This document shows positions 3,380 to 29,955 of a stretch of DNA of 32,000 bases, piece after piece; the first letter of the stretch is position 1; each line of letters begins with the position of its first letter. Origin of the DNA: Candidatus Woesearchaeota archaeon. Lineage in GTDB: Archaea > Nanobdellota > Nanobdellia > Nanobdellales > CAZNIQ01. Made by a program: the position numbers and the translations under genes. The stretch spans positions 439 through 32,438 of the forward strand of contig CAZNIQ010000005.1 in assembly GCA_964573185.1 (NCBI GenBank). Reading direction: 5' to 3'. The notes below the pieces were generated by a model. The model ran no database searches. It had not been told where the DNA came from and saw nothing but the letters and a program-made list of their open reading frames with translations.

Positions 3380-3868
3380 ATGGTAAAACTGCTTTCAAAA
3401 AAGGAGAAAAAAGAATTGAAAAGGAAATTATCATATATTGATGAAGAAATCTTAAATGAAATTTTTGATAAATACGAAAATATCTTTAGAATTGAATTAA
3501 AGGACAAAGATTTAATAATATATTATTCTAATAAGCCAATTTTCTTTGAAAAAGATAACAAAGTCTTTCCAACTTTAAATTTAATCTATGATCTAGGATA
3601 TATATTTTTGAAAGAAGTAAAGGTGGATGAAGGAGCGGTAAAGCACATTTTAAAAGGAGCAGATGTCTTTAGACCAGGAATCACATTTTTTGAGGAAAAC
3701 ATTCAAAAAGAAGATATAGTTGTTGTTGAAGATCCAAAAGAAAAACCAATAGCCATTGGGGTATCATTAGTAAACTTTGAAGAGTTTAAAAATATGGAAA
3801 AAGGAAAAGTAATTAAAAATTATCATTACTTAAATGATAAAATCTTTAAGTTTTCTTTGAAAAAATAA
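3380..3868 (+). CDS. PUA-domain RNA-binding protein (MCT-1/Tma20-like)
   Basis: The C-terminal half VDEGAVKHILKGADVFRPGITFF...IVVVEDPKEKPIAIGVSLV...KGKVIKNYHYLNDKIF is a canonical PUA domain. Confidence 0.7.
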   Translation: MVKLLSKKEKKELKRKLSYIDEEILNEIFDKYENIFRIELKDKDLIIYYSNKPIFFEKDNKVFPTLNLIYDLGYIFLKEVKVDEGAVKHILKGADVFRPGITFFEENIQKEDIVVVEDPKEKPIAIGVSLVNFEEFKNMEKGKVIKNYHYLNDKIFKFSLKK

Positions 3869-4930
3869 ATTCTTTAAAATCGAAGAGTATTTCATCCATT
3901 TGTTTAAATTAATTTTTCTTTTTTCTAACTCCTTTTTAATAAATTCCAAAGCTTCATAAGTTTTTCCTTTAAAAACTAGGTCAGAATATTTTACTCCTTC
4001 TCTTACAACCCAAACTCCTAATGGAACGTAATATTCTTCAGTTACTATTCTAAAAACAACAATGTTAGCTTGTCTTTTTATTTCTCTCAATTTTTCCAAT
4101 ACAGAAAGCTTTGAAGCATAAAAACCTCCATATTCTTCATCTTTTCCATAAATAGTATAACTATAAGGATTATAAATTGATTTTGGCTTAAAAGCTTCTA
4201 AGAGTTCAAATCTAAATGTCCCAGGTAAAAATAAAACAAAAAATTCATTTCCAAAGTATTTTTTATAAAAAACATAAGATTTTTCTACTTGTTTATAATT
4301 TTTAATTTCCTTTTCAAGTTTTTCTATAAGAATAGAATAAACAGCTGTTATAGCATTTTTTGAAGGAACGAGTTTTCTATTAATATATCCACCAACAAAT
4401 CCTAAAGAAAGTACCCTAGCTAGGTAAGAATCAGAATAACCTTTATTGTATAAATACCATATTGCTTCTTTTGCTCTTAAAGATTCATTTATTATATAAT
4501 CTACTTCTTTTGGAATCCTAGGATTACCATAAATATCAATTTTCTTCGCTTTAACGTTCAGAAAAGGTCCTATAGATGTAAAAACAACATTTGGTTTCCT
4601 TACCTTAGCTTCTATATCCAATTCCCTTATAGACAATAAATCTTCCTTATATTTTTCAAGAAAAGGATCTTTTCTTTTCCCAATATAAGCATAGGTCTTT
4701 CTAATGACGTTTACAAAAGATAGTCTTTGTTTAATAAATTCTTCAATTGTTTTTGGCTTCTCTTTATAAAGTTCTTCAGAAGACAAAATTCCTAAGTTCA
4801 AGTAAGGATACGAACCAGTGATTAGGGTATCTGGAGGTGTTATACCTGAAATTTCTCCCTTTATTTTCTTTGAATAAAGTACTTTGTATTTTTCTGCTAA
4901 TCTTTTTAATCTAACAACACCTACTTTCAT
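3830..4930 (-). CDS. Nre-like (COG1602 / Nre_N+Nre_C-like) protein with C-terminal PIP box
   Basis: Segments ITPPDTLITGSYPYLNLG, NRKLVPSKNAITAV and YYVPLGVWVVREGV resemble motifs I recall from archaeal Nre proteins (from memory, not searched). The extreme C-terminus QRKLKDFII fits the PIP consensus QxxLxxF[FYLI]. ATGA overlap with the upstream membrane gene at 4927-4930. Confidence 0.45.
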   Translation of the reverse strand: MKVGVVRLKRLAEKYKVLYSKKIKGEISGITPPDTLITGSYPYLNLGILSSEELYKEKPKTIEEFIKQRLSFVNVIRKTYAYIGKRKDPFLEKYKEDLLSIRELDIEAKVRKPNVVFTSIGPFLNVKAKKIDIYGNPRIPKEVDYIINESLRAKEAIWYLYNKGYSDSYLARVLSLGFVGGYINRKLVPSKNAITAVYSILIEKLEKEIKNYKQVEKSYVFYKKYFGNEFFVLFLPGTFRFELLEAFKPKSIYNPYSYTIYGKDEEYGGFYASKLSVLEKLREIKRQANIVVFRIVTEEYYVPLGVWVVREGVKYSDLVFKGKTYEALEFIKKELEKRKINLNKWMKYSSILKNLFFQRKLKDFII

Positions 4931-6852
4931 ACCACTGACGTTACCAATTTAGCTAAATTCCATAAGAACATAGAAGCTGTTGCTGCTACTATGGAATAAA
5001 GTACTACTGCTAAAAGCAAATTATACCCTATTAATTTCTTTTCTTTAAATTTATCCAACCCATTTTCAATTCCATTTATGATATATGATAATAAAATTAC
5101 TAATAAAATCAAGTAAAAACCAATAGCTAATTGTAGTATTGCTGGTGATATCGCTTTTTGAACAGAGAATATGTACAAGATTTCTAGAGGAACATAGGAT
5201 TCCACATTGGAAGGCAACTGTAGAGCGCTTATCGCTTTTCCTAAAGAAAGTAGAATTGCTATCATCATCGCATCCATTCCTATAATTATACCTAAAACCA
5301 AAGGGGCAACAAACTTTGCAACTAAGTTCATAGAAGATAATGTTTCTGCCAATAAATCCTTTATTCTTCTTTCCACTCTCTGTAAATATATCATATATTG
5401 TGCTATCACTGCCAATACTTTTGCAGCCGCCTCTGAACCTTTTTTAATATTTTCAACAAAGATTTCCATTACCCCTTTTAGCAGAGAGGAGGGATAATAC
5501 AATAAGGCTCCATTTTCCTTGTCAAATATAGCTTGCTCCAATGACATTCCTAAAAATTTTACGTTGTAAAAAGCTTTCCCAAAGAATTTTCCTATCTCCT
5601 TATTCTTATTCCTTAAATAAATTTCGTAAAACGCGAATTCTGGCGGTATTCCTTCTGACAATCTATTTGCCAATTGAATTAAAATTGAAGGTAATTCGCT
5701 TAATAACTTTTCCGTTCTTTCAACAACTCCTTTGACTAAATTATAATAGAAAATGAAAGCATAAGATATAGATAACCCCAAGATTATGATAAAGAAAATT
5801 GAAATTAAAATCGATGCAAGATTAGGATCATTTATATTTATTTTTAAAGAAGATAAAAGAATAAGTAGAAACCAAAAAACAAATATACCTGCTAGAATAG
5901 ATGTGAATTTAAAGTATTTTCCTTTCTTTTTTAGATAATTATAAATATAAGTGTCCTCGTAAGTATTATAAACAGGCCTCTTTCTCAATATATCTTTTCC
6001 TATAATTAAAATTGCTAGGGGAATTAAAACATCGTAAATTAATATTAAAGCTATAGGTGGAAAAGCTTCCGTTAATAAAGAACCTATTATAGGTACTAAA
6101 GTTAAGGTTAGCATTGGTAAAACCATTCCGAGCATATATAAAACTTCTATAGGATTTTTCAATGAAACAGCGTATTCCATCATCTTATCATATAATCCCT
6201 CTAGCATTTCTTCAACAGCTTTATCTAAAAGTATTTTTCTCCTCTCTTCAGAAGGTTCATATAATAAACTCTCTAAAAGTATTAGGGAATTTACAAAGTA
6301 ATCTGCTTTTCCTTGCCATCTTTTTATATAATCATCTAATGCTTCTTTCAAAGTTTTATATCTTCCTATCGAAACATTCCAATATAGTTTCATTAAATCT
6401 AGCTTTAATGGGGGATTTATGTGTTCTAGGGCGAATAAAAAAGCTTTTTCAAGATTTGGATTATATCTCATATACATTGCCATATAAAGGATAAATGGGA
6501 GTAGTTGTGCCTCCTTTTTCCTTTGAATATCCGAATATTTCCATTGTAGGTGTAAAAGTAGAAAAGCAATGATTGATACTCCAGCAAGCAAAGGAATTGT
6601 AAAATAAAAGATATTTAAAGTTGCAATAAAAAATAATAAAGATAAAAGTAAGGAAAAAATAAGAATTGTTATTATTGTGGAAAATAGTTTTTGTGATGCG
6701 CCAAAAAGGTGTGTTTCTTCTATATATTTATCAATATTCTTATCTTTAAAATCTACTTTTATGAAAGAAAAATTATTAACCAAGAATTCCCAAAGTTTAT
6801 CTACAGTGCTTATCTCGTATTTTCTTAATTCTAAATATTCTTGCGCAACCAT
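4927..6852 (-). CDS. FlaJ/TadC-like polytopic membrane platform protein (two T2SSF-like cytoplasmic domains)
   Basis: 641 aa with TM bundles alternating with two helical soluble domains (QLLPFILYMAMYMRYNPNLEKAFLFALEH... and LPSILIQLANRLSEGIPPEFAF...GMSLEQAI...). Overlaps the upstream secretion ATPase gene by 22 nt. Confidence 0.6.
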   Translation of the reverse strand: MVAQEYLELRKYEISTVDKLWEFLVNNFSFIKVDFKDKNIDKYIEETHLFGASQKLFSTIITILIFSLLLSLLFFIATLNIFYFTIPLLAGVSIIAFLLLHLQWKYSDIQRKKEAQLLPFILYMAMYMRYNPNLEKAFLFALEHINPPLKLDLMKLYWNVSIGRYKTLKEALDDYIKRWQGKADYFVNSLILLESLLYEPSEERRKILLDKAVEEMLEGLYDKMMEYAVSLKNPIEVLYMLGMVLPMLTLTLVPIIGSLLTEAFPPIALILIYDVLIPLAILIIGKDILRKRPVYNTYEDTYIYNYLKKKGKYFKFTSILAGIFVFWFLLILLSSLKININDPNLASILISIFFIIILGLSISYAFIFYYNLVKGVVERTEKLLSELPSILIQLANRLSEGIPPEFAFYEIYLRNKNKEIGKFFGKAFYNVKFLGMSLEQAIFDKENGALLYYPSSLLKGVMEIFVENIKKGSEAAAKVLAVIAQYMIYLQRVERRIKDLLAETLSSMNLVAKFVAPLVLGIIIGMDAMMIAILLSLGKAISALQLPSNVESYVPLEILYIFSVQKAISPAILQLAIGFYLILLVILLSYIINGIENGLDKFKEKKLIGYNLLLAVVLYSIVAATASMFLWNLAKLVTSVV

Positions 6853-9608
6853 TCTTCAAATCTTCTTAAGCATTCATTCTTCTCCGGATACCCCACCTCT
6901 TGATACACTTCATCCATTATTTTATGTAACATATCATTGGCTTTAACAACAAAATCTGCTTCTAATAATTCTCTATTACCTGTTCTTTTAGCATAATCCA
7001 CTAACATCTTTTTAGCTTCTGCTCTTAAAAGGATGTTTTCCCATAATTTTTCCCATGAACCTGCAAATACTTTTATTCTTGAAGCTACAGATTTTAAGAT
7101 TTCAGAATCCCCATGAATGAGATTTGAAGTTGGTTTCAATTCGTCTTTGTCTACGTCATATATCATTAAATCTACAAAACCCTTTTCCATTAGTGGATCC
7201 TTTTCCCAGTGTTTCCTTACTTCTGTTATTCTTAATACTCTCCTATATTTCCTTAAACCGGATGGATCTTTTATAGGATTTGCAATTACTATAATATCAG
7301 TTGCTTTAAATGAAGTTTTCGGGACACCCAAATCATTTACAACTCTATCGTAAACTCCATAAGGGCTTTCCGCATGAATAGTTCCCATAACTACATTTGC
7401 TAAAGCACCAACTCTCATAGCTTCATATAATGTTACAGCTTCTTTAGATCTCACCTCGCCTATAATTAAAGCAGAGTCACCAAGTCTTAAAGAAACTTTT
7501 ATTCCATCATCGGCAGAGAGTTCTGAAGTCTGTAAAGATAATGGAGAACGAACTTTCAAAGGTAAAATATTATATCCCAATTTTCTAAAGTAATCTGTTG
7601 GAATTTCCAAAACATCTTCAATAGTTATTATTCTAACTTTCCTAGGGATTTCTAGCATTAAAGCAGTTAAAAGAGATGTGTTGTGAGCTATAAAACCGTT
7701 TGCAATAAAGTTTTCGGTTTCCGTTTCCAAATCGTAAACCCATTCTTCATATGTCTCTTCAATTTTTTCCACTCTATCAAAGAATAAGTCTGAATTTGCT
7801 AATATCTCTAATTTTTCTAAAATTTCCTTTGCTTTTCTAATTCTTTCTTTTGCAATTTTTAATTTTTCTTCTTCATTTATTTCAGTAATTACTCTAGCTA
7901 TTGCTACAAAATTCCCCACCTTTAGTTCTTCGGCTCTTTTCCATTTCAATTCTCCTTTTTCGTTTACAAGGAATGGATGTTCTGGGGTAACTTTTATTTC
8001 AAATCCACTTTTTGTTTTTATTTTCAATAACTTTCCTCCTCTTCTTTTATAAACTGCCTTTACTTTAACTTTCTTTATTTTCAAATCTTTTAGATCTAAT
8101 CCATAAACATACAAATTTTTCGGAATAGTAACATAACCATCCTCTATTTCTATTTTGCCTTTTTCTAATTCTTTTTCAACCAAATCCTTTATTTTTACAA
8201 GCTCTCCTTTTCCATTTAAAATTAAGGTATCCCCTGATACACATTTTCCAGCTCCTCGCGTTCCGGCTATCAAAATTGTCCTCCCCGTGTCTACTAATAA
8301 GGATAATAAACCTGCTGCTAGAGGGCTTAACATTTTGTTCTCTATAAACAAAGGCAAGGTCCAAGGCCTAGATCTGTGTCTTCTTAAAGCAAAACCCAGA
8401 CCTTTTGGACTTAAAGGTTCCATAACGGCGGCAACTCTTGCTCTTACATTGCCTAAATCTATTTCTGTGTCCAATACAGGATTAGCCTCGTCAAATGGTC
8501 TTCCAGAAATTAATCTTAATTTTGTAGCCCATGATTCAGCTTCCTTTGGACTTACATAAATATTTGTAATACACTGCTCATAATCTGCATGATTTATAAA
8601 GATAGGTGTTTTTCCTAAAGGTGGATTGATTAAAATATCCTGAACCCTTTCATCTTTTAACAAATATTCTAAAATTCCAAAGCCGATGGTATATCTCGTA
8701 ATAATTTTTGCTAATAACTTTTTCCTTATATTTGGATAGTTTTTCAAGAAGTTTAAAACTAAATTATAGAAATTTTCTCTTAATCTGTACGGATCCAGAT
8801 AGTCTGCTCTTTTAGGCTGATATCCTATTAAGAATCTCCTTACTTGTAGCATCGCATTTACCTCTTCCGTTGTCAAGAAAAATTCCGGTGGAAAAATATA
8901 GTATCTATTTGAAACTTCGTAAGGTAAAGAAAATATAATTACTTCTGCATCATCCACTTTATAACTTTCTAAAATGTTTGCCTCTTCAGGAATACTTCTT
9001 ATTAATGATAAATAAATAAAAGAAGGCTTTATATCGGGTATGAAAAGCTTTCTATAAATTAACCTATCCCCAGGAACGTATCCATCTAGATAGACTTCTA
9101 TTCTTTTATATACTTCTGTCTTTTGAAATAACAATTCAATATAGCTTATTAAGTCGATTAACTCTTTTAATCCTATCTTTAATTCTATATCTTTTGTCTT
9201 CTCGTAATATACTTCCAATTTTCTTTTATATCTCTTTAATTCAACTAATGTGCCTATAGGATCGTAAGGATATTTTTTAAGGATATCAAGAAGATTTATT
9301 CTTTCAGTGTATGCAGCGTCTAATTTATTTAACTTTGAAAAAACATTTTGTATAGCATTCCATATAGAAGCCAACTCCTTTAGATATTTTATTTGAGAGG
9401 CCGAATATTCAAATATATCGTATTGTTCAATAATTATTTTATCAAACTTTTCCTTTGAAAAAAGATCAATTATGAAAGCCATTAACTTCGGATTTTCTTC
9501 TAGCAAAGGTATCTCTGGTTGCTGATTTAAATTAATATATAACACTTTTTCCCCATGTTCAAGTTTAACATCATATTGAAACATACCTATAAATATTCTT
9601 TTTTCCAA
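6831..9608 (-). CDS. KlbA/FlaI/VirB11-family type II/IV secretion ATPase with long N-terminal domain, interrupted by a mini-intein
   Basis: FALRRHRSRPWTLP...ILIAGTRGAGK[intein]TSLLTALMLEIP..VRIITIEDVLEIP...LIIGEVRSKEA...GTIHA gives a split Walker A, Walker B and His box. The tracked start is TTG 9608. ATG 9584 (MFQYDVKL) is more likely because TATA-like tttaaata (9611-9618) then lies about 30 nt upstream. Confidence 0.85.
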   Translation of the reverse strand: MEKRIFIGMFQYDVKLEHGEKVLYINLNQQPEIPLLEENPKLMAFIIDLFSKEKFDKIIIEQYDIFEYSASQIKYLKELASIWNAIQNVFSKLNKLDAAYTERINLLDILKKYPYDPIGTLVELKRYKRKLEVYYEKTKDIELKIGLKELIDLISYIELLFQKTEVYKRIEVYLDGYVPGDRLIYRKLFIPDIKPSFIYLSLIRSIPEEANILESYKVDDAEVIIFSLPYEVSNRYYIFPPEFFLTTEEVNAMLQVRRFLIGYQPKRADYLDPYRLRENFYNLVLNFLKNYPNIRKKLLAKIITRYTIGFGILEYLLKDERVQDILINPPLGKTPIFINHADYEQCITNIYVSPKEAESWATKLRLISGRPFDEANPVLDTEIDLGNVRARVAAVMEPLSPKGLGFALRRHRSRPWTLPLFIENKMLSPLAAGLLSLLVDTGRTILIAGTRGAGKCVSGDTLILNGKGELVKIKDLVEKELEKGKIEIEDGYVTIPKNLYVYGLDLKDLKIKKVKVKAVYKRRGGKLLKIKTKSGFEIKVTPEHPFLVNEKGELKWKRAEELKVGNFVAIARVITEINEEEKLKIAKERIRKAKEILEKLEILANSDLFFDRVEKIEETYEEWVYDLETETENFIANGFIAHNTSLLTALMLEIPRKVRIITIEDVLEIPTDYFRKLGYNILPLKVRSPLSLQTSELSADDGIKVSLRLGDSALIIGEVRSKEAVTLYEAMRVGALANVVMGTIHAESPYGVYDRVVNDLGVPKTSFKATDIIVIANPIKDPSGLRKYRRVLRITEVRKHWEKDPLMEKGFVDLMIYDVDKDELKPTSNLIHGDSEILKSVASRIKVFAGSWEKLWENILLRAEAKKMLVDYAKRTGNRELLEADFVVKANDMLHKIMDEVYQEVGYPEKNECLRRFEEWLRKNI
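7680..8243 (-). mobile_element. Mini-intein (188 aa, no homing endonuclease) inserted in the P-loop of the secretion ATPase
   Basis: Cys1 codon at 8243-8241 (GAGK|CVSGDTLIL, block A). Block B is KVTPEHPF, block F is VYDLETETENFIANG, and the terminal HN is followed by Thr+1 (FIAHN|TSLL; Asn codon 7682-7680). Removing it restores GAGKTSLL. The linker is a K/E-rich helix with no LAGLIDADG or HNH. Confidence 0.85.
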
Positions 9609-9618
9609 AATTTAAATA
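9585..9618. promoter_or_regulatory. Bidirectional promoter spacer with two TATA-like boxes
   Basis: tataaata (9588-9595) lies about 28 nt upstream of ATG 9619. tttaaata (9611-9618, tatttaaa on the minus strand) lies about 30 nt upstream of ATG 9584 of the ATPase. Confidence 0.4.
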
Positions 9619-10020
9619 ATGCTTGATATTGTTAAGCGTATTAAATATATAGAAGAAAAACTCGATGCGTTAAATCAAAAAGTCTATGCTTTTGAAAGAG
9701 ATTATCAAAGAGATCTAAATGAAATAAATGAAAAACTAAATAAGGTAAATGAGGAGTTAAGTTTTCTGAAAAAAGAGTTAAATGAATTAAGAAAAAGAAT
9801 TGATGCTTTGATTATAAGACTAAAATTCTTTGCTACAAAAGATGAGGTAAAAATGATACAGAGATACCTAGAATACTTTACGCCTCTAGGTTTTGTTACG
9901 GAAAATGAGTTAAAAAGAGTCCTGGAAAAATATGTCACTAAAGAGGAGTTAAATAAGATAATTAAAGAAATAAAACAAATAATAAATAATGCTTCAGTTG
10001 TTCAAGAAGAAGAAGAATGA
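9619..10020 (+). CDS. Coiled-coil protein, unknown function
   Basis: 133-aa ORF with heptad-like repeats (LNEINEKLNKVNEELSFLKKELNELRKRIDAL) and an acidic tail. Divergent from the ATPase operon across a 34-nt spacer. Confidence 0.5.
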   Translation: MLDIVKRIKYIEEKLDALNQKVYAFERDYQRDLNEINEKLNKVNEELSFLKKELNELRKRIDALIIRLKFFATKDEVKMIQRYLEYFTPLGFVTENELKRVLEKYVTKEELNKIIKEIKQIINNASVVQEEEE

Positions 10021-10522
10021 ATTAGAACTTCCACCTTTAGAACAGACACAACAGGGTACTCAGCAATTAGGACAAGACATTACCCAAACATTTAATCAAA
10101 ATATACAACAACCAATGTTTCAAGAGCAACCACAAATAAATTATGATTACCAGTATCAAACAAATTACAACTATAATTGGGAAGAGTATTTTCAATCTTT
10201 AGTCGAAAAAATAGTTAGTGAAAAATTACAGGAAGTAAGAAGAGAAATCGATGAGATAAAAAAATCATTATCAAAGTACGATGTTGAAATTTCTTCTTTG
10301 AAAGAGAAAATAAATAGTATTGAGAACAAGTTATTAGATTTTAATAAGATATTAATAGAAAAAACAGAGCATTATGATAAAACTGTTAAAGAGGTTTTAG
10401 CAGAAATAAAGGCATTTCACAAATTAATGCAAGATTTCTTACCAACGTTTACAGATGCTGTTAAGGAATTAAGGGAAGTTATTTCTAAGCTTGATCGGAT
10501 TTCTCAGCAATTTCGTCCTTAG
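9989..10522 (+). CDS. Coiled-coil protein with Q/N/Y-rich N-terminal low-complexity region
   Basis: 177-aa ORF overlapping the previous gene by 32 nt. Residues ~19-64 are QTQQGTQQLGQ...QPQINYDYQYQTNYNYNW, followed by a coiled coil. Confidence 0.5.
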   Translation: MLQLFKKKKNELELPPLEQTQQGTQQLGQDITQTFNQNIQQPMFQEQPQINYDYQYQTNYNYNWEEYFQSLVEKIVSEKLQEVRREIDEIKKSLSKYDVEISSLKEKINSIENKLLDFNKILIEKTEHYDKTVKEVLAEIKAFHKLMQDFLPTFTDAVKELREVISKLDRISQQFRP

Positions 10523-12391: not shown

Positions 12392-12946
12392 TTAGGACGT
12401 GCAAAGGAAATCTTCTAAAGAGGGTTTGTCATGTAGGTACTTCTTAAAAAGTTCTATAACTTTTCTTTCATATTCAGGAAGTCTAGGATCGTTAGCATTC
12501 AATGGTATTTTTTCAAAGTTCTCGCTTCTTACTATATGAATAACAGGACCAGCCCCTGTTTCTATATAATCCAAACCCCTAAATTCTCTCGGATTTTTTA
12601 TCATATATGAAACTCTTACGTCATAGCCGATGTTTAAGCATTTGTTATATTTTTCTAGATCTGCTCTCAAAGCAAATGGAGAATCTGGTAAAGGAACTAC
12701 ATCTTGTATTTTAGTTCCAATTATCGTATCATGTTTTAGGATTGCCAGTTTCCACCCATTTTCATATTTGTAACATACATAAACGTAACCTATATCAGAA
12801 AGCTTTGGTTCGGCACTGCTACAAATCAATATATTATCGAAATCTTCACGCTTCCCAAAAAGATTAGAATAAGAAACGCTACCTATTGCTGCTAATACAA
12901 GAGCACTACCTACTATCTTTAAAAAATCTCTTCTATTCATCTTCAT
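12392..12946 (-). CDS. Exported hypothetical protein with twin-arginine (Tat)-type signal peptide
   Basis: The N-terminus MKMNRRDFLKIVGSALVLAAIGSV has the RRxFLK motif followed by a hydrophobic h-region. The mature part has no recognisable family. Confidence 0.5.
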   Translation of the reverse strand: MKMNRRDFLKIVGSALVLAAIGSVSYSNLFGKREDFDNILICSSAEPKLSDIGYVYVCYKYENGWKLAILKHDTIIGTKIQDVVPLPDSPFALRADLEKYNKCLNIGYDVRVSYMIKNPREFRGLDYIETGAGPVIHIVRSENFEKIPLNANDPRLPEYERKVIELFKKYLHDKPSLEDFLCTS

Positions 12947-13730: not shown

Positions 13731-13861
13731 GGCGGGCGGACGGCTTCCGCCGATTCCCGGCGGCCTGCGCCGCCAGTACTACGGCGGACGTGGCCCGGCT
13801 TAACTTCCGTGTTCGAAATGGGAACGGGTGTTTCCCGGGCACTTTGGCCGTCCTACCCGCC
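13731..13861 (-). rRNA. rrf: 5S ribosomal RNA (orphan, not linked to 16S/23S in this window)
   Basis: GC-rich island. The reverse complement reads GGCGGGTAGGACGGCCAAAGTGCCCGGGAAACACCCGTTCCCATTTCGAACACGGAAGTTAAGCCGGGCCACGTCCGCCGTAGTACTGGCGG...GCCGTCCGCCCGCC. It contains the universal CCCATTTCGAACACGGAAGTTAAGCC loop and GTACTGG, and the termini pair into a long helix I. Confidence 0.9.
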
Positions 13862-13912: not shown

Positions 13913-14401
13913 ATGACAACTTTATGCCCTACCGTGAACTTTAGAAAATATATAAGAAGTACATTAGGAAAATACTATAAAACGGAATTTGTTAGGCTCT
14001 TAGAGGAATGTCAAACTCTTGAGGAGATTATTCAAACCTTATTAGAACATAACGTACCTCCAACTTACGCTGAGACTTTAATAAAAAAAGAACTCTTGAT
14101 TCCGGTAGACGGTGTATGTATCGAGCAGCTTGGAGGCTATATTCTAAGAAGAATGACTGCATATATAAATGATGAAAAGAATAAATATTATGCTACTTTG
14201 ATTTTAAGGAAAATAAAAGACATTATGAGAGAGAAAGGAAAAAGATGTATTTCGTATGAAGAACTAGAAGAAACGTTAAACCTTTTAGGATATCAAAAAT
14301 TAGCAAGAGATATAATAAGATCTATAAAAACATATGTAAGCTTTATCTTAAACCATAATAGGAAAGCACGTAATTTTTATCAATATAATAAGCCTGAATA
14401 A
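13913..14401 (+). CDS. Hypothetical protein (163 aa)
   Basis: This is the internal ATG of tracked ORF 13709..14401. The upstream 68 codons are the antisense of the 5S rRNA gene and its promoter, so I discard them. The palindromic tttttaaaaa at 13883-13892 sits about 26 nt upstream of this ATG. The 3' end overlaps the convergent ATPase gene by 59 nt. Confidence 0.4.
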   Translation: MTTLCPTVNFRKYIRSTLGKYYKTEFVRLLEECQTLEEIIQTLLEHNVPPTYAETLIKKELLIPVDGVCIEQLGGYILRRMTAYINDEKNKYYATLILRKIKDIMREKGKRCISYEELEETLNLLGYQKLARDIIRSIKTYVSFILNHNRKARNFYQYNKPE

Positions 14402-15872
14402 TTTTTGTGAAAATTCTATAATCTCTAATACCAAGCTCAGCTAATTTTCTTAAAAGTCTTGCTCTTATTTTTAATTCTTCCCAAAGTTCTTCCTCAGAAA
14501 TCCCGTATTCCTTTGATATTTTCTTAAAAACATAAGAAGTCCCATAAAATTCAAAAGTGTTTCTTGCAAAATTATATCTGAAAGGAACATTATATTTTAC
14601 ATCACCATTTTGATATACTTCCATAATTTCATAAGTTTCTTTTAAAACTCTTCTTATACTGCCAGATTTATCTTTAAAATGAATCATAGAAGCAACAATA
14701 TCTAAAAGTTCAACTAAAGAAGGTGGTAAATTGATTGGGGGTGTTATTAATCTTCTAACAACCGCTTTTACATCTGTTGCGTGCATCGTACTTAAACAAG
14801 CATGTCCGGAAGCCATTCCTTGAAATAAAACGTAAGCTTCTTCACCACGTATTTCACCAACAACTACATAATCTGGACGCTGTCTAAAAGAAGCTTTTAA
14901 CAAATCAAATAAAGAAACTTCTCCATAGCCAGATAAACCAAAAGCGGGTCTTGATACAGCTGGGATCCAATTCTCATGATATAATTGAATTTCTCTTGTT
15001 TCTTCTATTGTTACAATTCTTGCAGTAGGCGGAATAAACATTAGAATAGCATTAAGAAATGTAGTTTTACCTGCAGCAGTTGGCCCTATAACCAAGATAT
15101 TTCTCTTATATTCAACAGCTAGCCAGAAATAAGCAAAGATTTCAGGAGTTGCCGTTCCATTCAAAATAAGGTCTATCGGTGTTAGGGGTTCCTTCCTAAA
15201 CTTTCTTATAGTAAATGTCGGACCCCTTGTAGTGATATCAGAAGTATAAGTTGCGTTAACTCTGGAACCGTCTGGAAGTGTAGCATCTAAAATAGGCTCA
15301 GCATAAGAAACATATCTACCAGCCCTTTGTGCCATTTTTTCAATTAACTTTCTTATTTCTTCTTCATCTTTAAATATAATATTTGTTCTCAGATTACCAA
15401 AAATCCTATGAACTACAAATACTGGAATATTTACTCCAGAACATTCTATATCTTCAATAAAAGGATCATGCATTAAAGGTTCTATTGGTCCTAAACCGAT
15501 AAAGTCTCTAAAAATGTAATACATTATTTTATTGTAAGATTCGTCTGGAAGATCTATTCCTAATTCTGACATAACGAATTGAACGTTATCTTCTAGATAT
15601 TCCAAAGCTTTTTTTACGTCTTTGAATCTCGAAAAACCAACATTTAAAACTTCTTTTAACCCCTCCTCTATTAATTCTAAAGCTTGTTTTTCTGTATCTG
15701 TTAATTTAGGTTCAAGTACGAAATAAATTAAATCTCCTAGTTGAGGAACGTATTTTATTCTTGCATAAGCATAAGGATAAATTAGAGGATAAATTACATC
15801 TACTTGCTTTTTGTCAGCGAACTTAGGAATATTTGGAATAGGCGGTGAAAGATCAATATAGAATTTTGGCAT
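14343..15872 (-). CDS. FlaI/ArlI-like type IV filament assembly ATPase (GspE/VirB11 superfamily)
   Basis: TIRKFRKEPLTPIDLI...ILVIGPTAAGKTTFLNAILMFIP..ARIVTIEETREIQL...RQRPDYVVVGEIRGEEA...GHACLSTMHA gives Walker A, Asp box, Walker B and His box. Its 509 aa is typical of archaeal FlaI/PilB-like ATPases. Confidence 0.85.
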   Translation of the reverse strand: MPKFYIDLSPPIPNIPKFADKKQVDVIYPLIYPYAYARIKYVPQLGDLIYFVLEPKLTDTEKQALELIEEGLKEVLNVGFSRFKDVKKALEYLEDNVQFVMSELGIDLPDESYNKIMYYIFRDFIGLGPIEPLMHDPFIEDIECSGVNIPVFVVHRIFGNLRTNIIFKDEEEIRKLIEKMAQRAGRYVSYAEPILDATLPDGSRVNATYTSDITTRGPTFTIRKFRKEPLTPIDLILNGTATPEIFAYFWLAVEYKRNILVIGPTAAGKTTFLNAILMFIPPTARIVTIEETREIQLYHENWIPAVSRPAFGLSGYGEVSLFDLLKASFRQRPDYVVVGEIRGEEAYVLFQGMASGHACLSTMHATDVKAVVRRLITPPINLPPSLVELLDIVASMIHFKDKSGSIRRVLKETYEIMEVYQNGDVKYNVPFRYNFARNTFEFYGTSYVFKKISKEYGISEEELWEELKIRARLLRKLAELGIRDYRIFTKIIQAYYIDKNYVLSYYGLR

Positions 15873-15909
15873 TATTATTTTAAGCCCGAACGTATTATTA
15901 AAAGTTATA

Positions 15910-17403
15910 ATGCAAAAGTTTGTTCAAGAAACCTTAAAGGAGATTAGAGAAATTCATATTCTTCTATATAAGCTCAAATTAATTAGAGAAAAAGAAAAAA
16001 AACTGAAAGAAGAACTTAAAGAGATAGAAATTTTGTTTAAAAGAGGTCTAATTGGAGATAAGACATATAATAAATTAAAAAATGAAATTGAGGAAGAAGT
16101 AAGGAAAATAGATGATAAAAAATATTATATTATAAATAGAATTTTACAGATAATTGATGATATTGATAATAGAATAAAATTCTTGCTCGAGACTCGAGAA
16201 ATATCAAAAGATAAATGGATAAAAGAAAAGATAGATAAAACATTAGAAATCATTCATAGAGAGATTAAAAAAGAAAATATATCCAAGCCTGTAGTTCAAA
16301 GAATAAAAGAACTAAAGTATAGTATTCCTAGAGTTCAAATAAATATTCGACCAAAGATAGCAAAAGGTAAAATAGAAATAGAAAAGAGAAAACCAAAGCT
16401 TTCTAGAGTTGCAGTAAGATTATACCAAGAATTAAAGAGAAGAAAAGAGGAAAGGAAAAATGTTTTGAAAAGAAAGGTTATTATTGTTCATAAAACTAAA
16501 AAGCATAGTACTATTAATATATTTGAAAAAATAGCAAATAAGTATTTTGGCGGTCTCGCTGATTTCATTATAAAAAACTTTCCGGATTTATATGCTAAAT
16601 TCTATGAAGTTTTAAGGAGATCTGGAATTAAAACTTTATCCAAGACATATTTTGCATTAATGTTGTTCCTAACAATTATTGTTTTTATTTTCTCTTTAGT
16701 AATTGATCTAATACTACATATATTTGTATTCAAATCTTTCAATCCTCTTTCCTTCTTCATTTTTCTTATATTAATAACTTTGTTTTCAATTCCTTTAACT
16801 ATTGCTATATTTTTGATTTATCCTTACATCAAAGAGAAAGAGAGAAGAGAAAATATAGATGCTGCTTTACCTTTTGCTCTAGTTCAGATGTCTGCTATAG
16901 CGTCAGCAAACGTTTCCCCATATGTAATGATAAAAGTTATTGCAAATACTGAAGAATTCAAAGATCTTTCAGATGAGTTAAAGAAAGTCATAGAATATAT
17001 TGATTATATGGGTTATGATCTTACTACTGCTTTAAGAATGGTTGCAGAGGAGACTCCCTCATATAAATTAAAAGATTTTCTAAAGGGTCTAGCATCTATT
17101 ATAAAATCCGGTGGAAATGTTGCGGAATATATTAAAGAGAAAGCATTAGATGCCTTAATACATTATAGAACTGAAAGAAAGAAATTTATACAAGCTTTAC
17201 AAACTTATTCTGATTTATACACCGGTATAGTTGTTGCTGCTCCTTTATTTTTCATAGCTACATTAGCAGTTTTACAAACAATGGGTGGAAAAGTTTTTAA
17301 CATAGATATCTCAAAGGCAATTTTCTTCGGAACATATGTTTTTATACCCTTAATTAACATTTTGTTTTTGCTATTTATTCATATAACCCAGCCAAAAGGT
17401 TAA
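15910..17403 (+). CDS. Half-size FlaJ/TadC-like platform protein with ~200-aa N-terminal K/E-rich coiled-coil extension
   Basis: The C-terminal ~290 aa have TM helices, one T2SSF-like domain (ALPFALVQMSAIASANVSP...GYDLTTALRMVAEETPSYKLKDFLKGLASIIKSGGN) and more TM helices. The N-terminal 200 aa are charged heptad repeats. Confidence 0.6.
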   Translation: MQKFVQETLKEIREIHILLYKLKLIREKEKKLKEELKEIEILFKRGLIGDKTYNKLKNEIEEEVRKIDDKKYYIINRILQIIDDIDNRIKFLLETREISKDKWIKEKIDKTLEIIHREIKKENISKPVVQRIKELKYSIPRVQINIRPKIAKGKIEIEKRKPKLSRVAVRLYQELKRRKEERKNVLKRKVIIVHKTKKHSTINIFEKIANKYFGGLADFIIKNFPDLYAKFYEVLRRSGIKTLSKTYFALMLFLTIIVFIFSLVIDLILHIFVFKSFNPLSFFIFLILITLFSIPLTIAIFLIYPYIKEKERRENIDAALPFALVQMSAIASANVSPYVMIKVIANTEEFKDLSDELKKVIEYIDYMGYDLTTALRMVAEETPSYKLKDFLKGLASIIKSGGNVAEYIKEKALDALIHYRTERKKFIQALQTYSDLYTGIVVAAPLFFIATLAVLQTMGGKVFNIDISKAIFFGTYVFIPLINILFLLFIHITQPKG

Positions 17404-17636
17404 ACTGAACGAGCAGAAAACAAAACTATTGCCAATCCTGCTAAGAATATAATAATTGCAGAGTAGCTTTCTTTTAAGAACATCTTAATTTGCCAATACG
17501 TTTCAAATGACACTCCAAATAAAGACAAAATCCTATAGAAAGTATAAGAGTTTGTAAAAGTATCAATAAGTAGAATAATCCCAAGAATTAACAAAATAAT
17601 CCCTAGGAATCTTATGGGATCTGTAAATGAGCGCAT
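17400..17636 (-). CDS. Possible small membrane protein (78 aa); doubtful
   Basis: Two or three hydrophobic helices. The only ATG (17636-17634) shares its A with the discriminator base of tRNA-Gly, and the tracked upstream extension is antisense-free tRNA sequence. It may not be a real gene. Confidence 0.3.
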   Translation of the reverse strand: MRSFTDPIRFLGIILLILGIILLIDTFTNSYTFYRILSLFGVSFETYWQIKMFLKESYSAIIIFLAGLAIVLFSARSV

Positions 17637-17706
17637 GCGGCGGCCGGGATTCGAACCCGGGTCACGGGCTTGGAAGGCCCGCATCCTGCCGCTAGACTAC
17701 CGCCGC
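17636..17706 (-). tRNA. tRNA-Gly (anticodon UCC), intron-less, CCA not encoded
   Basis: The reverse complement is GCGGCGG-TA-GTCTAGCGGCAGGAT-G-CGGGC-CTTCCAA-GCCCG-TGAC-CCGGG-TTCGAAT-CCCGG-CCGCCGC-A. This gives a 7-bp acceptor stem, 5-bp anticodon stem, TCC anticodon and a TTCGAAT T-loop. Confidence 0.9.
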
Positions 17707-18061: not shown

Positions 18062-21000
18062 ATGCCAAGTGATGATAAGAAGAAACCGGAAATAAGATTA
18101 AAGGTTGCAGAAGCTAGGCAAGAAGATGTTTACAAGGGTATAGTTCGTATAGATGCTGAAGCCATGAGAAAAATAGGAGTAAAACCCGGGGATGTAGTTG
18201 AAATAGAAGGAAAAAGAAAAACAGTAGCCATTGCTGAAAGATCATATCCTGAAGACGTAGGATTAGGAATAATAAGAATGGATGGTATTCTAAGAAGAAA
18301 TGCAGGTGTTTCTTTAGGTGAATATGTAACTGTAAGGAAAGCTGATGTTAAAGAAGCTAGAAGAGTTGTAATTGCTCCCGCACAAAAAGGCGTTTATGTC
18401 GAAATTCCACCGGAAATGGCAAAGCAAGCTTTACTTGGAAGGCCTCTAATGAAAGGAGATTTAATTGTTCTAGGGGGATACAGAAGAAGGAGGAGATATT
18501 CTTCAGATTTCTTTGAAGATATATTTTCTGTATTTGAAGAACCTTTCTTTACCGGTTTTGCTGAAACTAAATTCATAGTTGTAGATACACAACCTAGAGG
18601 ACCTGTAATTGTAACAGATATGACAGAAGTAGAAGTATTGCCACAAGCCGTTGAAGTTAAAGAGGAAATTCCAGAGGTTACTTGGGAAGATATTGGTGAT
18701 ATGGAAGAAGTTGTGAGGAAAGTTAGAGAATTAGTTGAGTTGCCTTTGAAACATCCCGAAATCTTTGAAAGGTTGGGAATTGAACCTCCAAAAGGGATAT
18801 TGCTATATGGTCCTCCGGGTACTGGTAAAACACTCCTAGCCAAAGCCGTTGCAAATGAAACAGGGGCCTACTTTATTGCCATTAATGGACCAGAGATAGT
18901 TTCAAAGTATGTCGGTGAATCCGAAAGAAGATTAAGAGAAATATTTGAAGAAGCTCAAAAGAATGCTCCTGCGATTATATTTATAGATGAAATCGACGCT
19001 ATAGCTCCAAGAAGAGATGAAGCTGTTGGTGAAGTAGAAAGAAGATTAGTTGCACAGCTTTTAACCTTAATGGATGGTTTAAAATCTAGAGGAAAAGTTA
19101 TAGTTATAGCAGCAACGAACAGGCCTAATGCAATAGATCCTGCATTAAGAAGACCCGGAAGATTTGATAGAGAAATAGAAGTTCCCGTACCAGATGAAAG
19201 AGCCAGATACGAAATACTAAAAGTTCATACAAGAAATGTTCCCTTAGGTAAAAAGATTGTAGAGAAAACACCTGATGGTAAAACAGTAGAAAAGTATGTA
19301 TTGTTAACTCCAGAAGAAAGAGATCAATTGTTAAGAAAATTAGCAAAGATGACCCACGGTTACGTAGGTGCAGATCTAGCTGCTTTAGTTAAAGAGGCTG
19401 CAATGAATGCTATTAGAAGAGTATTACCAGATATACTTGAAAGAGAAGAAGGGCCATTACCTCCAGAAGTACTAGAGAAGTTAGTAGTTACTGAAGAAGA
19501 CTTTATGGAAGCTTTGAAAGTGGTACCTCCATCTGCAATGAGAGAAGTTTTAGTAGAGGTACCTAACGTTAGATGGGATGATATTGGAGGATTAGATGAG
19601 GTTAAACAGATGTTAAAGGAAATGGTTGTTTGGCCTTTGAAATATAGAGAGATATACAAGAAATTGGGAATTGAACCTCCAAAAGGGATATTGCTATATG
19701 GTCCTCCGGGTACTGGTAAGACTTTGTTAGCAAAGGCGGTGGCTACAGAATCTGGAATGAACTTTATAGCAGTAAAAGGTCCAGAAATTTTATCGAAGTG
19801 GGTAGGTGAGTCAATTCCCGGAGATGAGAAAGTTTTAGCAAAGATAGATGGAGAAGTAAAACTAATTGAAGTAGAAAAGTTATATGAAGAATGGTTAAGA
19901 GGAAAAGAAATAGAAGTAGTATCTGTTGTCGATGGAAAAGTAAGATGGTCTAAGATAGAAAAGATTTCAAGACATCTAAGAACTTCACCAGTAGTTGAGA
20001 TAATTACAGAATCTGGAAGAAGAGTTAAGGTTACTTTAGATCATTCTGTATTCACTGTTAAAGATGGAAGAATAATTTCGGTTCCTACTTCAGAATTAAA
20101 GGAAGGCGATTGGATTGTCTTAATAAATAGAATACCGTCTGGAGATAAAGAAGAAATAGCGGGGATAAAAATAAATGAAAATATTGCAGAACTAATAGGT
20201 TTATATATAGCTGAAGGAGATATAAATAAAGACTATGTAAGGATTCATACGAAAGATTCTGAAATAATAAAAGAAATAGAAAGGATAATAAAAGAGGAAA
20301 AGCTTGAAGGAAAGTATTATGAAAAAGATGGTTCATTCTGGATAAAGACGAAATGGTTCGTAGAATTATGCAAATTATTCGGAGTAGGAGCTAAAAACAA
20401 AAGATTAGGACCTGCTCTATCTTTAAAGAAAGAATTATTAGCTAAAGTGTTGAAAGGATACTTTTCTGGAGATGGAACATTCTACTTAAAGAACCATAAA
20501 AGATCTGGAACAATAGAGGCAGTAACTGTAAGTAAAACTTTAGCTGAAGAATTATTAATAGCTCTATCAATGTTTGGTATATTTGCAAGGATAAAAGAAA
20601 GGGTAAATAGAGTAGGAAACATTGAATATAGGATTCTAATTGGAAGGACAGAACAATTCAAGATTTTCTTAGAAGAAATAAGATTTATACAGGAAGGAAA
20701 GAATAGAAAGCTTAAAGAATTTATAAAGAGTAGGAAATGGACGAGAGGCAAAAGAAATATACCAGCAGAACTAGTAGGAAAGTTGTATGCTGATATGGAG
20801 GTAGAATATTATTCTGATAGGGTTGTTCAGAAAGCATTAAAGAAAGTATTGCTAGAAGATTTGTACTTCGATAAAATAAAGGAAATAAGAGTCCTAGAGA
20901 GGGATGATATGTATGTTTATGATGTTGTTGAAGTAAAGGAGGGGCATAATTTTGTAGGAGGACAAGGTTTCTTATTGCATAACTCTGAAAAAGCTATTAG

Positions 21001-21826
21001 AGAAATATTTAGGAAGGCTAGACAAGTAGCACCATGTGTTATTTTCTTTGATGAAATAGATGCTATTGCTGCTAGAAGAGGCTCTGAAACTTCAGGAGTC
21101 ATAGATAGAATTGTAAACCAGTTATTAACAGAAATGGACGGTATTACTACAAGAGGGGATGTTGTTGTAATAGCAGCAACTAATAGACCCGATCTGATAG
21201 ATCCTGCTTTATTAAGACCCGGAAGATTTGATAGATTAGTTTATGTCCCACCACCAGATAAGAAAGCTAGAATCGAGATACTAGCAATACATACTAGGAA
21301 CACACCACTAGATCCTGAATTTGACAAGAACTTAGAAACTCTAAAGAAGAAATTAGAGGAAATTAAGAATAACGAGGAAATGTTAAAGTTCTATAAGGTA
21401 TCAAAGGAAGACGTAGAGAAATGGCTAAGAGAGTTAACAGATGCGAAGAAAGCTTATGAATTGTACGAGAAAGATAAGAAATTTAGATATGTTGCTAATG
21501 CTTTGTTGATCTTTGAACCTATTGCAGAAAAGACCGAAATGTACTCCGGTGCTGATCTAGCAGCACTTGCAAGGGAAGCAGCATTAACAGCATTGAGGGA
21601 AAGATTAGAGTACTATAGAAACCAAGGTTTATCCGAAGATGAGGCATTAGCAAAAATAAAAGACGAGCAAATAAAAGTAAAGTTAGAACACTTTGAGAAA
21701 GCATTACAAAAAGTAAAACCATCTATTACAAAAGAAATGCTCGAATATTATAAAGCTTTTACAGAATATATGAAAGGAACGTTTAGGAAGGAAGAAAAAA
21801 GAGACAAAAGATCTTACCTACTTTAA
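18062..21826 (+). CDS. cdc48: Cdc48/VCP-type AAA+ ATPase (N domain + D1 + D2) carrying an intein in D2
   Basis: N domain ([20 protein letters not shown]). Two AAA modules, each with [20 protein letters not shown] and IIFIDEID / [11 protein letters not shown] with [17 protein letters not shown]. The D2 helix after Walker A is interrupted (WVGE|S...HN|SEKAIREIF, compare D1 [13 protein letters not shown]). Confidence 0.95.
18773..18828 (+). repeat. 56-nt perfect intragenic repeat, copy 1 (D1 Walker A region of cdc48)
   Basis: ttgggaattgaacctccaaaagggatattgctatatggtcctccgggtactggtaa is identical base for base to 19664-19719. Confidence 0.95.
19664..19719 (+). repeat. 56-nt perfect intragenic repeat, copy 2 (D2 Walker A region of cdc48)
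   Basis: Identical to 18773-18828. It ends 92 nt upstream of the intein insertion point. Confidence 0.95.
19811..20983 (+). mobile_element. Full-length intein (391 aa) with LAGLIDADG homing-endonuclease domain, Ser1 / Ser+1
   Basis: Block A is [14 protein letters not shown] (Ser1 codon 19811-19813) and block B is [10 protein letters not shown]. The LAGLIDADG motifs are [10 protein letters not shown] and [10 protein letters not shown]. Block F is [16 protein letters not shown], and the terminal LLHN (Asn 20981-20983) is followed by Ser. Excision restores [13 protein letters not shown], matching D1. Confidence 0.9.
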
Positions 21827-29238: not shown

Positions 29239-29955
29239 ATGTTATTATCTAAAGAAAAATTTGTATTAGCTGGTATTTTAAGCATAGTTCTCGTTTATAC
29301 GGTTTTTGCATCAATAAATATTATTGGAACATTATATGTAAGTGAAATATGTTTGAATGGAAAGTGCATACAGGATTGGAAAAATATAACACATCCATTA
29401 GAAAAGAAAATCAATGAATTGAGCAGAAAAATAGAGGAATTAAATAAATCCGTTAGAAAGATAAATATTATTTTAGAACAGGGGACAGGACTTGCTATTC
29501 TTAAATCCTGGGATCAATGTTATGATGGGAAATATGTAAGATCACCCTATTGTGTTGGAGCGGTACCTCCTGTGTGCAGTCCTTATGCGATGTTAGATTT
29601 AGGAAGCATAAAGCATATTACTAAAATAAGAATTGTTGCTTCAGCAGGGAATAACTGCTGCTGTGGTTTCTGTATAGACATGTGCCCAACAGGGTATAAT
29701 CAAGGAGGTTATGTTCCAATAGCAATAATGTACTCTACTGATGGTAAGAATTGGAAATACGTTCCTGTACTAAGTATTACTGGAGGTGGGAGGAAATGCT
29801 TTGAAGGACAAGTGCAGACAGTCCCTTGCTGTGAATTCAAAGAAATAAACATCACCACAGATATATACGCAAGATATATAATAGTTGGAAGAGGAAGTGG
29901 ATGGGGTCCTGCTAGAGGAGAAGTATTAATAGACTGTGTCCAAGCTCTCTCCTAA
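29239..29955 (+). CDS. Membrane-anchored Cys-rich protein with discoidin/galactose-binding-like C-terminal domain
   Basis: N-terminal TM (FVLAGILSIVLVYTVFASINII), a short coiled coil, then about 150 aa with about 15 Cys including CCCGFCIDMC and PCC. The strand pattern ITKIRIVAS / IMYSTDGKNWKYV / ARYIIV resembles F5/8 type C domains. Confidence 0.5.
   Translation: MLLSKEKFVLAGILSIVLVYTVFASINIIGTLYVSEICLNGKCIQDWKNITHPLEKKINELSRKIEELNKSVRKINIILEQGTGLAILKSWDQCYDGKYVRSPYCVGAVPPVCSPYAMLDLGSIKHITKIRIVASAGNNCCCGFCIDMCPTGYNQGGYVPIAIMYSTDGKNWKYVPVLSITGGGRKCFEGQVQTVPCCEFKEINITTDIYARYIIVGRGSGWGPARGEVLIDCVQALS

Follow-up and report, generated by a model that had tools for sequence, protein, structure and literature searches.

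Genome compaction as the probable source of an overlapping string of secretion ATPase, membrane platform and NreA genes in a nanoarchaeal genome

The stretch of DNA analysed here (the window) comprises 32,000 nucleotides of a Candidatus Woesearchaeota archaeon (contig CAZNIQ010000005.1, positions 439 to 32,438; G+C ~30%). Its minus strand carries three overlapping open reading frames (ORFs) at 6831-9608, 4927-6852 and 3830-4930, which encode a secretion ATPase interrupted by a mini-intein, a membrane platform protein and a DNA-repair-type protein of the Nre family. The closest named relatives of the three proteins are found in Nanopusillaceae, Nanobdella aerobiophila and Woesearchaeota, and the source is accordingly taken to be an uncultured nanoarchaeon (DPANN). 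Two unrelated functions have probably been packed together at this site, namely a type IV filament-like core machinery and an ordinary NreA, and their co-transcription would be a neutral result of genome compaction. A preliminary description of the locus had proposed that a clamp-binding Nre protein is hard-wired to the motor and platform to form a DNA-handling machine. This proposal was not upheld, because Nre is no commoner beside the ATPase than bystander genes are, a Dph2-like gene intervenes between platform and Nre in related lineages, and the C-terminal motif predicted to bind proliferating cell nuclear antigen (PCNA) is found throughout the Nre family.

Conservation and transcription of the gene neighbourhood

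Relatives of the ATPase were found in at least 540 species genomes when one genome per species was scanned with an alignment of the ATPase family, and the best 80 of these loci were used for a census in which the neighbours were identified by tblastn. The platform gene lies directly downstream of the ATPase gene on the same strand in 58 of the 67 loci with enough flanking sequence. Homologues of two coiled-coil proteins, referred to as CC1 and CC2, are encoded divergently upstream of the ATPase in 48 and 43 of 64 loci, respectively. The conserved unit is the ATPase and the platform, divergent from CC1 and CC2. Nre was present anywhere in the locus in three of the 80 cases, which is the same as the frequency of the bystander genes PIN, GTPase, PUA, AsnC and TFE (two to three loci each, mostly the same Nanopusillus loci), and chance alone would give about 1.5 co-locations per 80 loci if the gene is single-copy, the genome measures ~0.8 Mb and each locus spans ~15 kb. 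The three-gene order, which had been expected to recur if the genes act together, does not do so beyond the level of bystander genes, and judged from gene order the neighbourhood is essentially not conserved in relatives. The only co-location of Nre and ATPase found outside Nanoarchaeales is in an archaeal metagenome-assembled genome (L068, 644-5578), where Nre, a 198-aa ORF and the ATPase lie on the same strand and are followed by TFS, with no platform.

Two of the three Nre-bearing loci belong to Nanopusillus and have an opposite-strand Dph2-like gene between platform and Nre. In Nanobdella aerobiophila and three Nanopusillaceae contigs, the order is ATPase, platform, a Diphthamide_syn gene on the opposite strand, Nre, a PUA gene on the opposite strand, a small unannotated gene and AsnC; in two of these loci (L004 and L005), GTPase, PIN and eIF2-gamma genes follow AsnC. 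The genes of this long block have unrelated functions, and their order is collinear with that of the window. A common transcript from ATPase to Nre is ruled out in Nanobdella and Nanopusillaceae because the intervening gene runs in the opposite direction, and Nre there has its own TATA box, situated in the short spacer that it shares with the Dph2-like gene. No Dph2 homologue was found within the 32-kb window. The closest relative (L001, Nre 88% identical) has the same three-gene order and the same overlaps as the window.

Gene context can be informative for Nre, as shown by a locus (L092, 8001-9975) in which a radical-SAM gene lies downstream of Nre and overlaps it; Giroux and MacNeill have described this NreB/SplB-like pairing. 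This case served as a positive control, as it indicates that true Nre partnerships show up by gene context. No secretion ATPase lies near Nre in three Nre loci from DPANN lineages outside Nanoarchaeales, one of which has the published pairing of Nre with radical SAM, and no paper linking Nre to secretion ATPases was found in the literature. The Dph2-like genes (PF01866) divergent from Nre are located at 7287-7964 in L002, 7319-7963 in L004 and 7289-7966 in L005, and a Dph6-like PP-loop gene (PF01902) is divergent beside Nre on another DPANN contig (L091, 7075-7788). The recurrence of a diphthamide-pathway gene beside Nre involves two unrelated arrangements and may be a coincidence.

The overlaps within the string could be read directly from the sequence and are as the preliminary description had given them. 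The ATPase stop and the platform start overlap by 22 nt at 6831-6852 on the minus strand (ATGGTTGCGCAAGAATATTTAG), and an overlap of 22 to 25 nt is kept in the closest relative as well as in L002, L004 and L005. The platform stop and the Nre start share an ATGA at 4927-4930 (minus strand), a junction found only in the window genome and its 88%-related relative. At its other end, Nre is convergent with the PUA gene, with an antisense overlap of 39 nt at 3830-3868 that is the same in the closest relative and shows how tightly this genome is packed.

A TATA-like hexamer was found 27-32 nt upstream of the ATG in about 16 genes of the window, which implies that, as far as sequence can tell, most mRNAs of the window would be leaderless. 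For example, such boxes stand upstream of 3342, 3380, 9584, 12360, 12946, 15872, 15910, 18012, 18062, 22047, 23559 and 24748. The divergent spacer of 34 bp between ATPase and CC1 (9585-9618) holds two of them, TATTTAAAT for the ATPase and TATAAATA for CC1, and probably drives leaderless transcription in both directions. A TATA-like box also lies upstream of the ATPase in all Nanoarchaeales relatives. A box at -27 to -32 precedes most genes that head a transcription unit in the window, and none was found there ahead of platform or Nre. Neither the window genome nor its closest relative has a conserved TATA box before Nre, where the corresponding position is platform coding sequence. A weak element, AATTTAGCTAAAT, at -29 to -17 upstream of Nre is improbable as an internal promoter and is not conserved in the closest relative. 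Since the genes overlap and no TATA box precedes platform or Nre, the ATPase, platform and Nre genes are likely to be co-transcribed in the window genome.

The secretion machine and its mini-intein

The ATPase precursor (6831-9584, minus strand) is of the GspE/FlaI/CpaF type. It matches the Pfam family T2SSE (PF00437) with 47 bits, and the spliced extein of 737 aa does so with 60.8 bits (cut-off 24.9). The spliced extein also matches archaeal GspE (2OAP, 1.4e-25), CpaF (3e-22) and FlaI (5.7e-19) in the PDB over residues ~216-635. Its Walker A sequence reads GTRGAGKTS after splicing. ITIEDVLE, LIIGEVRS and GTIHAESP, which would be the Asp box, Walker B and the His box, are invariant or nearly so in comparisons of 7 and 30 family members. 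All four motifs appear to be intact in the spliced protein. Compared to the NCBIfam FlaI equivalog, the ATPase scores 97 bits against a cut-off of 550. The preliminary description was correct in calling it a FlaI-type secretion ATPase, and the T2SSE, 2OAP, CpaF and FlaI matches are the evidence for this.

For the start of the gene, the ORF coordinates given earlier were confirmed, and ATG 9584 is a likelier start than TTG 9608, to which the mechanical ORF extends. The TTG leaves 10 bp to the divergent gene, with no room for the TATA box of the relatives, and was rejected. ATG 9584 is the most likely start, because the 34-bp spacer then holds a TATA-like box at about -32, as in relatives.

The best 80 ATPase loci show 45-54% identity along nearly the entire protein, and the N-terminal part of the protein is matched by 1326 proteins. 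The family possesses a DPANN-specific extension of ~200 aa at the N-terminus and a conserved extension of ~100 aa at the C-terminus. An AlphaFold2 (AF2) model of the N-terminal 447 aa had a mean confidence (pLDDT) of 85.6, and a Foldseek search with it retrieved 2OAP (1e-9) and 4IHQ (2.5e-9). The alignments with 2OAP, FlaI and CpaF cover ~200-265 columns, corresponding to a GspE-like N-domain from about aa 200 on. The first ~190 residues, modelled as a small sheet and a helical bundle, found no match among solved structures in the Foldseek search of the N-terminal model. No recognisable nucleic-acid-binding domain was found in the N-terminal extension, in CC1 or in CC2.

The mini-intein is 188 aa long (aa 456-643 of the precursor; 7680-8243, minus strand) and splits Walker A between K and T (GAGK|TS). 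That the ATPase bears an intein, as first described, was confirmed by Pfam Intein_splicing (1.2e-28) and by the N- and C-terminal intein models TIGR01445 (2.4e-20) and TIGR01443 (7.2e-7). C1, a TPEH block, the terminal HN and Thr+1 could be read from the sequence, and the intein appears to carry the complete set of splicing blocks and nucleophiles, with no homing endonuclease domain in its 188 aa. Because it interrupts the P-loop of Walker A, splicing would be needed before activity, and the unspliced precursor would be inactive. The nearest solved intein is that of Pyrococcus CDC21 (Pho CDC21, 6RPQ, 3.4e-25); the matches to the inteins of RadA (6e-20) and Mja KlbA (2JMZ, 1.5e-9) are weaker. 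The Mja KlbA (MJ0781) intein is comparable in being an endonuclease-free mini-intein in a secretion ATPase of the VirB11/KlbA type. However, close kinship was rejected on these E-values, as the window intein is much nearer in sequence to the Pyrococcus CDC21 and RadA inteins, and it begins with Cys, whereas Mja KlbA begins with Ala. No such intein is present in the ATPase of the 88%-related genome (739 aa), in any of the 80 related loci (ATPase match lengths of 2073-2259 nt) or in the best 120 homologues (738-770 aa, apart from two partial entries). Among more than 200 family members inspected, it was seen in one member only. This intein allele is the sole clearly unusual element of the region.

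The platform (4927-6852, minus strand) is a polytopic protein of 641 aa. Searched by itself, it matched nothing in Pfam or NCBIfam, even at E <= 1. Its family is large and DPANN-wide, and T2SSF (PF00482) is matched by 6 of 20 platform homologues (best 1.6e-7). The C-terminal half of the family profile aligned to the T2SSF region of a second TadC-like protein encoded in the window (hhalign, E = 5.5e-5). The AF2 model of the platform (pLDDT 82.8; pTM, its overall score, 0.78) matches the cytoplasmic domains of EpsF and OutF locally with a probability of 1.00, a TMt of 0.70-0.75 and a root-mean-square deviation of ~2.9 A. Foldseek with the whole model gave poor global E-values, and the structural support consists of these local domain matches. 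The protein is assigned as a divergent member of the GspF/TadC/FlaJ type because of the T2SSF hits in its family, the hhalign result, the modelled match to EpsF/OutF and its place after the ATPase. The preliminary description had called it a two-domain FlaJ/TadC-like platform. Its TadC-like family was borne out and the two-domain part was weakly supported, as the N- and C-terminal halves aligned in register with E = 0.012 and a probability of 3.6% (hhalign), and of the two only the C-terminal half aligned to the second TadC-like protein. Across the three gene products, the searches with hidden Markov models suggested earlier retrieved T2SSE, Nre_N and Nre_C directly and T2SSF at the family level (6/20).

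CC1 (9619-10020, plus strand) is a coiled-coil protein of 133 aa, and CC2 (9989-10522, plus strand) has 177 aa, with a Q/N-rich N-terminus followed by a coiled coil. Profile searches with CC1 and CC2 against PDB and Pfam gave generic coiled-coil matches and no known family. CC2 homologues were aligned with the window at 4627-5274 of L007 and 4389-5099 of L009. In Woesearchaeota and Diapherotrites, CC2 homologues carry an N-terminal helical motif, QGxSxxQIIxxLQxxGYxxxQIxDAxxQA, that has a UBA-like look, and the Nanoarchaeales proteins have a low-complexity Q/N-rich stretch in its place. A C-terminal motif of CC2, EYDKxxxxVGTEIKAMEKVFxKxLP, is well conserved.

Pilins were searched for with a crude FlaFind-like pattern for class III signal peptides, with L009 as the positive control. 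In this control locus, seven class III candidates and a Peptidase_A24 gene lie just downstream of the homologous ATPase/platform pair. The scan of the 32-kb window gave no class III signal-peptide ORF and no Peptidase_A24, in agreement with the earlier statement that no such gene lies nearby. Three or more candidates were found in 10 of the 80 loci, and a single one-off match in L016 was taken as background. Because no genuine pilin candidate was found in the window or in the Nanoarchaeales loci, filament assembly is proposed by homology. Some DPANN relatives carry pilin clusters and a prepilin peptidase beside the homologous pair, and for this reason an ordinary system for type IV filaments is the most likely identity of the machine.

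Several features of known systems are shared. In the archaeal type IV pilus (T4P) pairs of VirB11-family ATPase and TadC (Makarova, Koonin & Albers 2016), the ATPase is likewise followed by an overlapping TadC-like platform and pilins are not necessarily encoded in cis, as in the window. Nanoarchaeal ATPases for which no pilins could be identified are already on record there, and a coiled-coil cytoplasmic partner has been described in subclade 4F loci (PMC4858521). Jarett et al. 2018 discussed FlaJ/TadC homologues of Nanoarchaeota as likely host-interaction factors. Compared to the pairs of Makarova et al., the window family has the ~200-aa and ~100-aa extensions, an unusual conservation and two specific divergent coiled-coil partners. 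The ATPase core aligns to archaellum FlaI and Tad CpaF (4II7/4IHQ, 8RKD and 9E24) in sequence and predicted fold, and the platform carries predicted GspF-like cytoplasmic helical bundles, as do FlaJ and TadB-TadC. Unlike in the archaellum, no FlaH, FlaF/G or archaellin genes lie near the pair.

The Nre protein and the competing explanations

The third gene (3830-4930, minus strand) encodes an NreA-type protein of 366 aa. Its Nre-like identity, first proposed from sequence segments, was established by matches above the gathering cut-offs to Nre_N (PF04894, 2.3e-48, 165.8 bits, cut-off 25) and Nre_C (PF04895, 4.4e-25, 88.1 bits, cut-off 27). Homologues in Nanopusillaceae and Nanobdella are 40-42% identical, and one of them is annotated as 'DNA repair protein NreA'. 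The NCBIfam model NF041387 (DNArepr_NreA_Halo) gave 161.7 bits against a cut-off of 700, a miss that is expected for a nanoarchaeal orthologue because the model is specific to haloarchaea. NreA binds PCNA and takes part in repairing damaged DNA in A. fulgidus and H. volcanii (PMC4929162). The window protein resembles these NreA proteins in its Nre_N and Nre_C domains and its C-terminal PCNA-interacting protein (PIP) type motif, and it appears to be single-copy within 32 kb, like NreA. The N-terminal Cys4 domain is absent from the window protein, as it is from haloarchaeal NreA (PMC4929162). Identity to non-DPANN Nre proteins is at most ~30%.

The PIP-type motif QRKLKDFII, also noticed in the preliminary description, fits the pattern Qxx[LIMV]xx[FWY][hydrophobic], which was looked for in the last 14 aa. 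The pattern was found in Nre homologues in 16 of 37 cases in its strict form and in 30 of 37 in a loose form, compared to 0 of 157 controls. The last position of the window motif is Ile, whereas it is aromatic in NreA of H. volcanii and A. fulgidus. Its nine codons (3833-3859, minus strand) fall within the 39-nt overlap and are antisense to those for the C-terminus of the PUA protein. The C-terminal PIP motif of NreA had already been published, and in Haloferax it is required for the repair of mitomycin C damage (PMC4929162). Because the motif is widespread in Nre homologues and was known for NreA, that of the window copy is an ordinary family feature with nothing special to it. By analogy, the protein would be an ordinary NreA orthologue, for which PCNA binding and a repair role are predicted.

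Taken together, the ATPase, platform, CC1 and CC2 would make up the central part of a machine of the type IV filament kind, which is widespread among DPANN archaea. The ATPase precursor would first splice out its mini-intein, and the hexameric ATPase would then dock on the platform at its GspF-like helical bundles in the cytoplasm, as in GspE/FlaI/CpaF systems. By analogy with these systems, ATP hydrolysis would power the extraction of pilin-like subunits from the membrane and their assembly into a filament on the cell surface that probably serves to contact the host cell; the pilins may be encoded elsewhere or be too divergent for recognition. NreA, which occurs in nearly all archaea, would act as a PCNA-tethered DNA-repair factor and would have come to lie beside the platform through inherited block synteny. 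Loss or relocation of the Dph2-like gene in the window lineage may then have fused Nre to the upstream unit, with the ATGA junction and read-through as results. The co-transcription of Nre would be a neutral by-product of genome compaction, with no functional coupling.

Four observations weigh against this explanation. For a T4P motor, the conservation of the ATPase is unusual, and no structure matches its first ~190 residues, so the family could serve something other than the building of pili. Neither the window nor any of the Nanoarchaeales loci yielded a pilin or a prepilin peptidase in the FlaFind-like scan. In the window genome and its close relative, no separate promoter could be recognised for Nre, and its start overlaps the stop codon of the platform gene; Nre is probably co-expressed with the machine, and this could have gained some meaning. 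Finally, an independent co-location occurs in L068, though it is within the chance expectation given above.

It is rather unlikely that the module in Nanoarchaeales is a pilin-independent derivative, such as a secretion or host-contact device, to which Nre is unrelated. Such a derivative would account for the lack of pilins and prepilin peptidase in these loci and in the window, and Makarova et al. likewise found prepilin peptidases to be missing in two nanoarchaea and could not recognise cognate pilins for nanoarchaeal T4P ATPases (PMC4858521). It would also suit an ATPase that is 45-54% identical across orders, with conserved N- and C-terminal extensions and an unmatched beginning, and cytoplasmic coiled-coil partners that are conserved and outside any known family. 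However, class III clusters flank homologous pairs in L009 and about 10 of the 80 loci, with Peptidase_A24 in L009 as well, and archaeal pilins are often encoded apart from the ATPase/TadC pair (PMC4858521); the view of this genome covered 32 kb. The unusual conservation of the ATPase, its extra N-terminal domain that matches no structure and the two uncharacterised coiled-coil partners could further suggest that the module of hundreds of DPANN genomes is a distinct machine, derived from type IV filaments, for host-cell contact or the transfer of macromolecules and not an ordinary adhesion pilus. In the Nanoarchaeaceae-like lineage of the window, NreA would then have been captured into its transcription unit, so that repair is co-expressed with the acquisition of DNA or material from the host. 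This possibility is considered very unlikely.

The placement of Nre could also have a functional basis. There is a slight probability that the coupling is regulatory and not physical, in that a repair factor and a filament system have come under one promoter in the window lineage. A single transcription unit is probable here, and a precedent tying DNA damage, T4P and repair is provided by the Ups pili of Sulfolobales, which are UV-inducible and promote DNA exchange for repair. Ups has been treated as subclade 4I (PMC4858521). Compared to the Ups pili and Ced DNA import, which are a conceptual precedent for a link between T4P and repair, there is only gene adjacency in two genomes in the present case, and no ups or ced homology was seen, with no test aimed at it. 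The fused arrangement is confined to these two closely related genomes, and in sister families the promoters are separate; no element responsive to damage was identified, and the neutral loss of the intervening Dph2-like gene accounts for the same facts. It is least probable, and very unlikely, that Nre is a working part of an ATPase/platform apparatus for DNA uptake, export or surface-coupled repair, to which its PIP box recruits PCNA. Nre is absent from 77 of the 80 loci, with a frequency equal to that of unrelated neighbours, and the nearest other families have an opposite-strand gene between platform and Nre as well as an Nre promoter. Nre is a near-universal stand-alone archaeal protein with a family-wide PIP motif (PMC4929162), homologous pairs in other DPANN accompany pilin clusters, and a recognisable nucleic-acid-binding domain is missing from the N-terminal extension of the ATPase and from CC1 and CC2. 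Against these results stand the overlaps of a translational-coupling type, the lack of a separate Nre promoter in the window genome and L001, the absence of pilin genes in cis and the one further Nre/ATPase co-location in the unrelated lineage of L068. The packing of an ordinary NreA with a type IV filament-like core therefore remains the preferred explanation.

Other features of the window and wider meaning

A second type IV-like pair is encoded at 14343-17403. It consists of an ATPase of 509 aa on the minus strand (T2SSE 8e-35, with PilB3_C) and a divergent TadC-like protein of 497 aa on the plus strand (T2SSF 1e-12) that has a long N-terminal coiled coil. The spacer of 37 bp between them has TATA-like boxes at about -31/-32 on both sides, and no pilin genes are adjacent. 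A tRNA-Gly(TCC) gene (17636-17706, minus strand) abuts an ORF for a two-helix membrane protein of 78 aa (17400-17636) beside the second TadC gene.

A CDC48/VCP AAA ATPase of 1254 aa (18062-21826, plus strand) contains a large intein (Intein_splicing 5e-21) with a LAGLIDADG endonuclease domain (LAGLIDADG_3 4e-21); with it, two ATPases that bear an intein lie within 10 kb. A lone 5S rRNA gene (13735-13855, minus strand, 87.7 bits) forms a G+C-rich island crossed by spurious ORFs. A protein of 184 aa with no known family (12392-12946, minus strand) begins with the twin-arginine-like sequence MKMNRRDFLKIVGSALVLAAIG; its TAT_signal match is weak (E = 0.0098, below the cut-off), and such a signal would be odd for a reduced nanoarchaeal genome. 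Two overlapping genes at 29239-30442 (plus strand) encode proteins of 238 and 168 aa whose family is unknown and which have hydrophobic N-termini (MLLSKEKFVLAGILSIVLVYTVF... and MSKLSPKTFIFLILLIIFILYIVF...). Neither matches the [KR][GA] pattern of class III cleavage, and both could be secreted or surface proteins.

If it were true, the DNA-handling interpretation would mean a new class of archaeal membrane machine, and the evidence is against it. The mini-intein, as a previously unlisted allele that interrupts Walker A in a secretion ATPase of DPANN, is of modest value. In the window genome, the spacing of TATA-like boxes offers an easy means of telling where transcription units begin. We know of no experimental study of the DPANN module of ATPase, platform, CC1 and CC2, and its occurrence in at least 540 DPANN species genomes makes these four genes a reasonable target for work on the attachment of symbionts to their hosts. 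Compaction can build operon-like strings of overlapping genes from unrelated functions, and overlap alone is therefore no proof of functional coupling in nanoarchaeal genomes.

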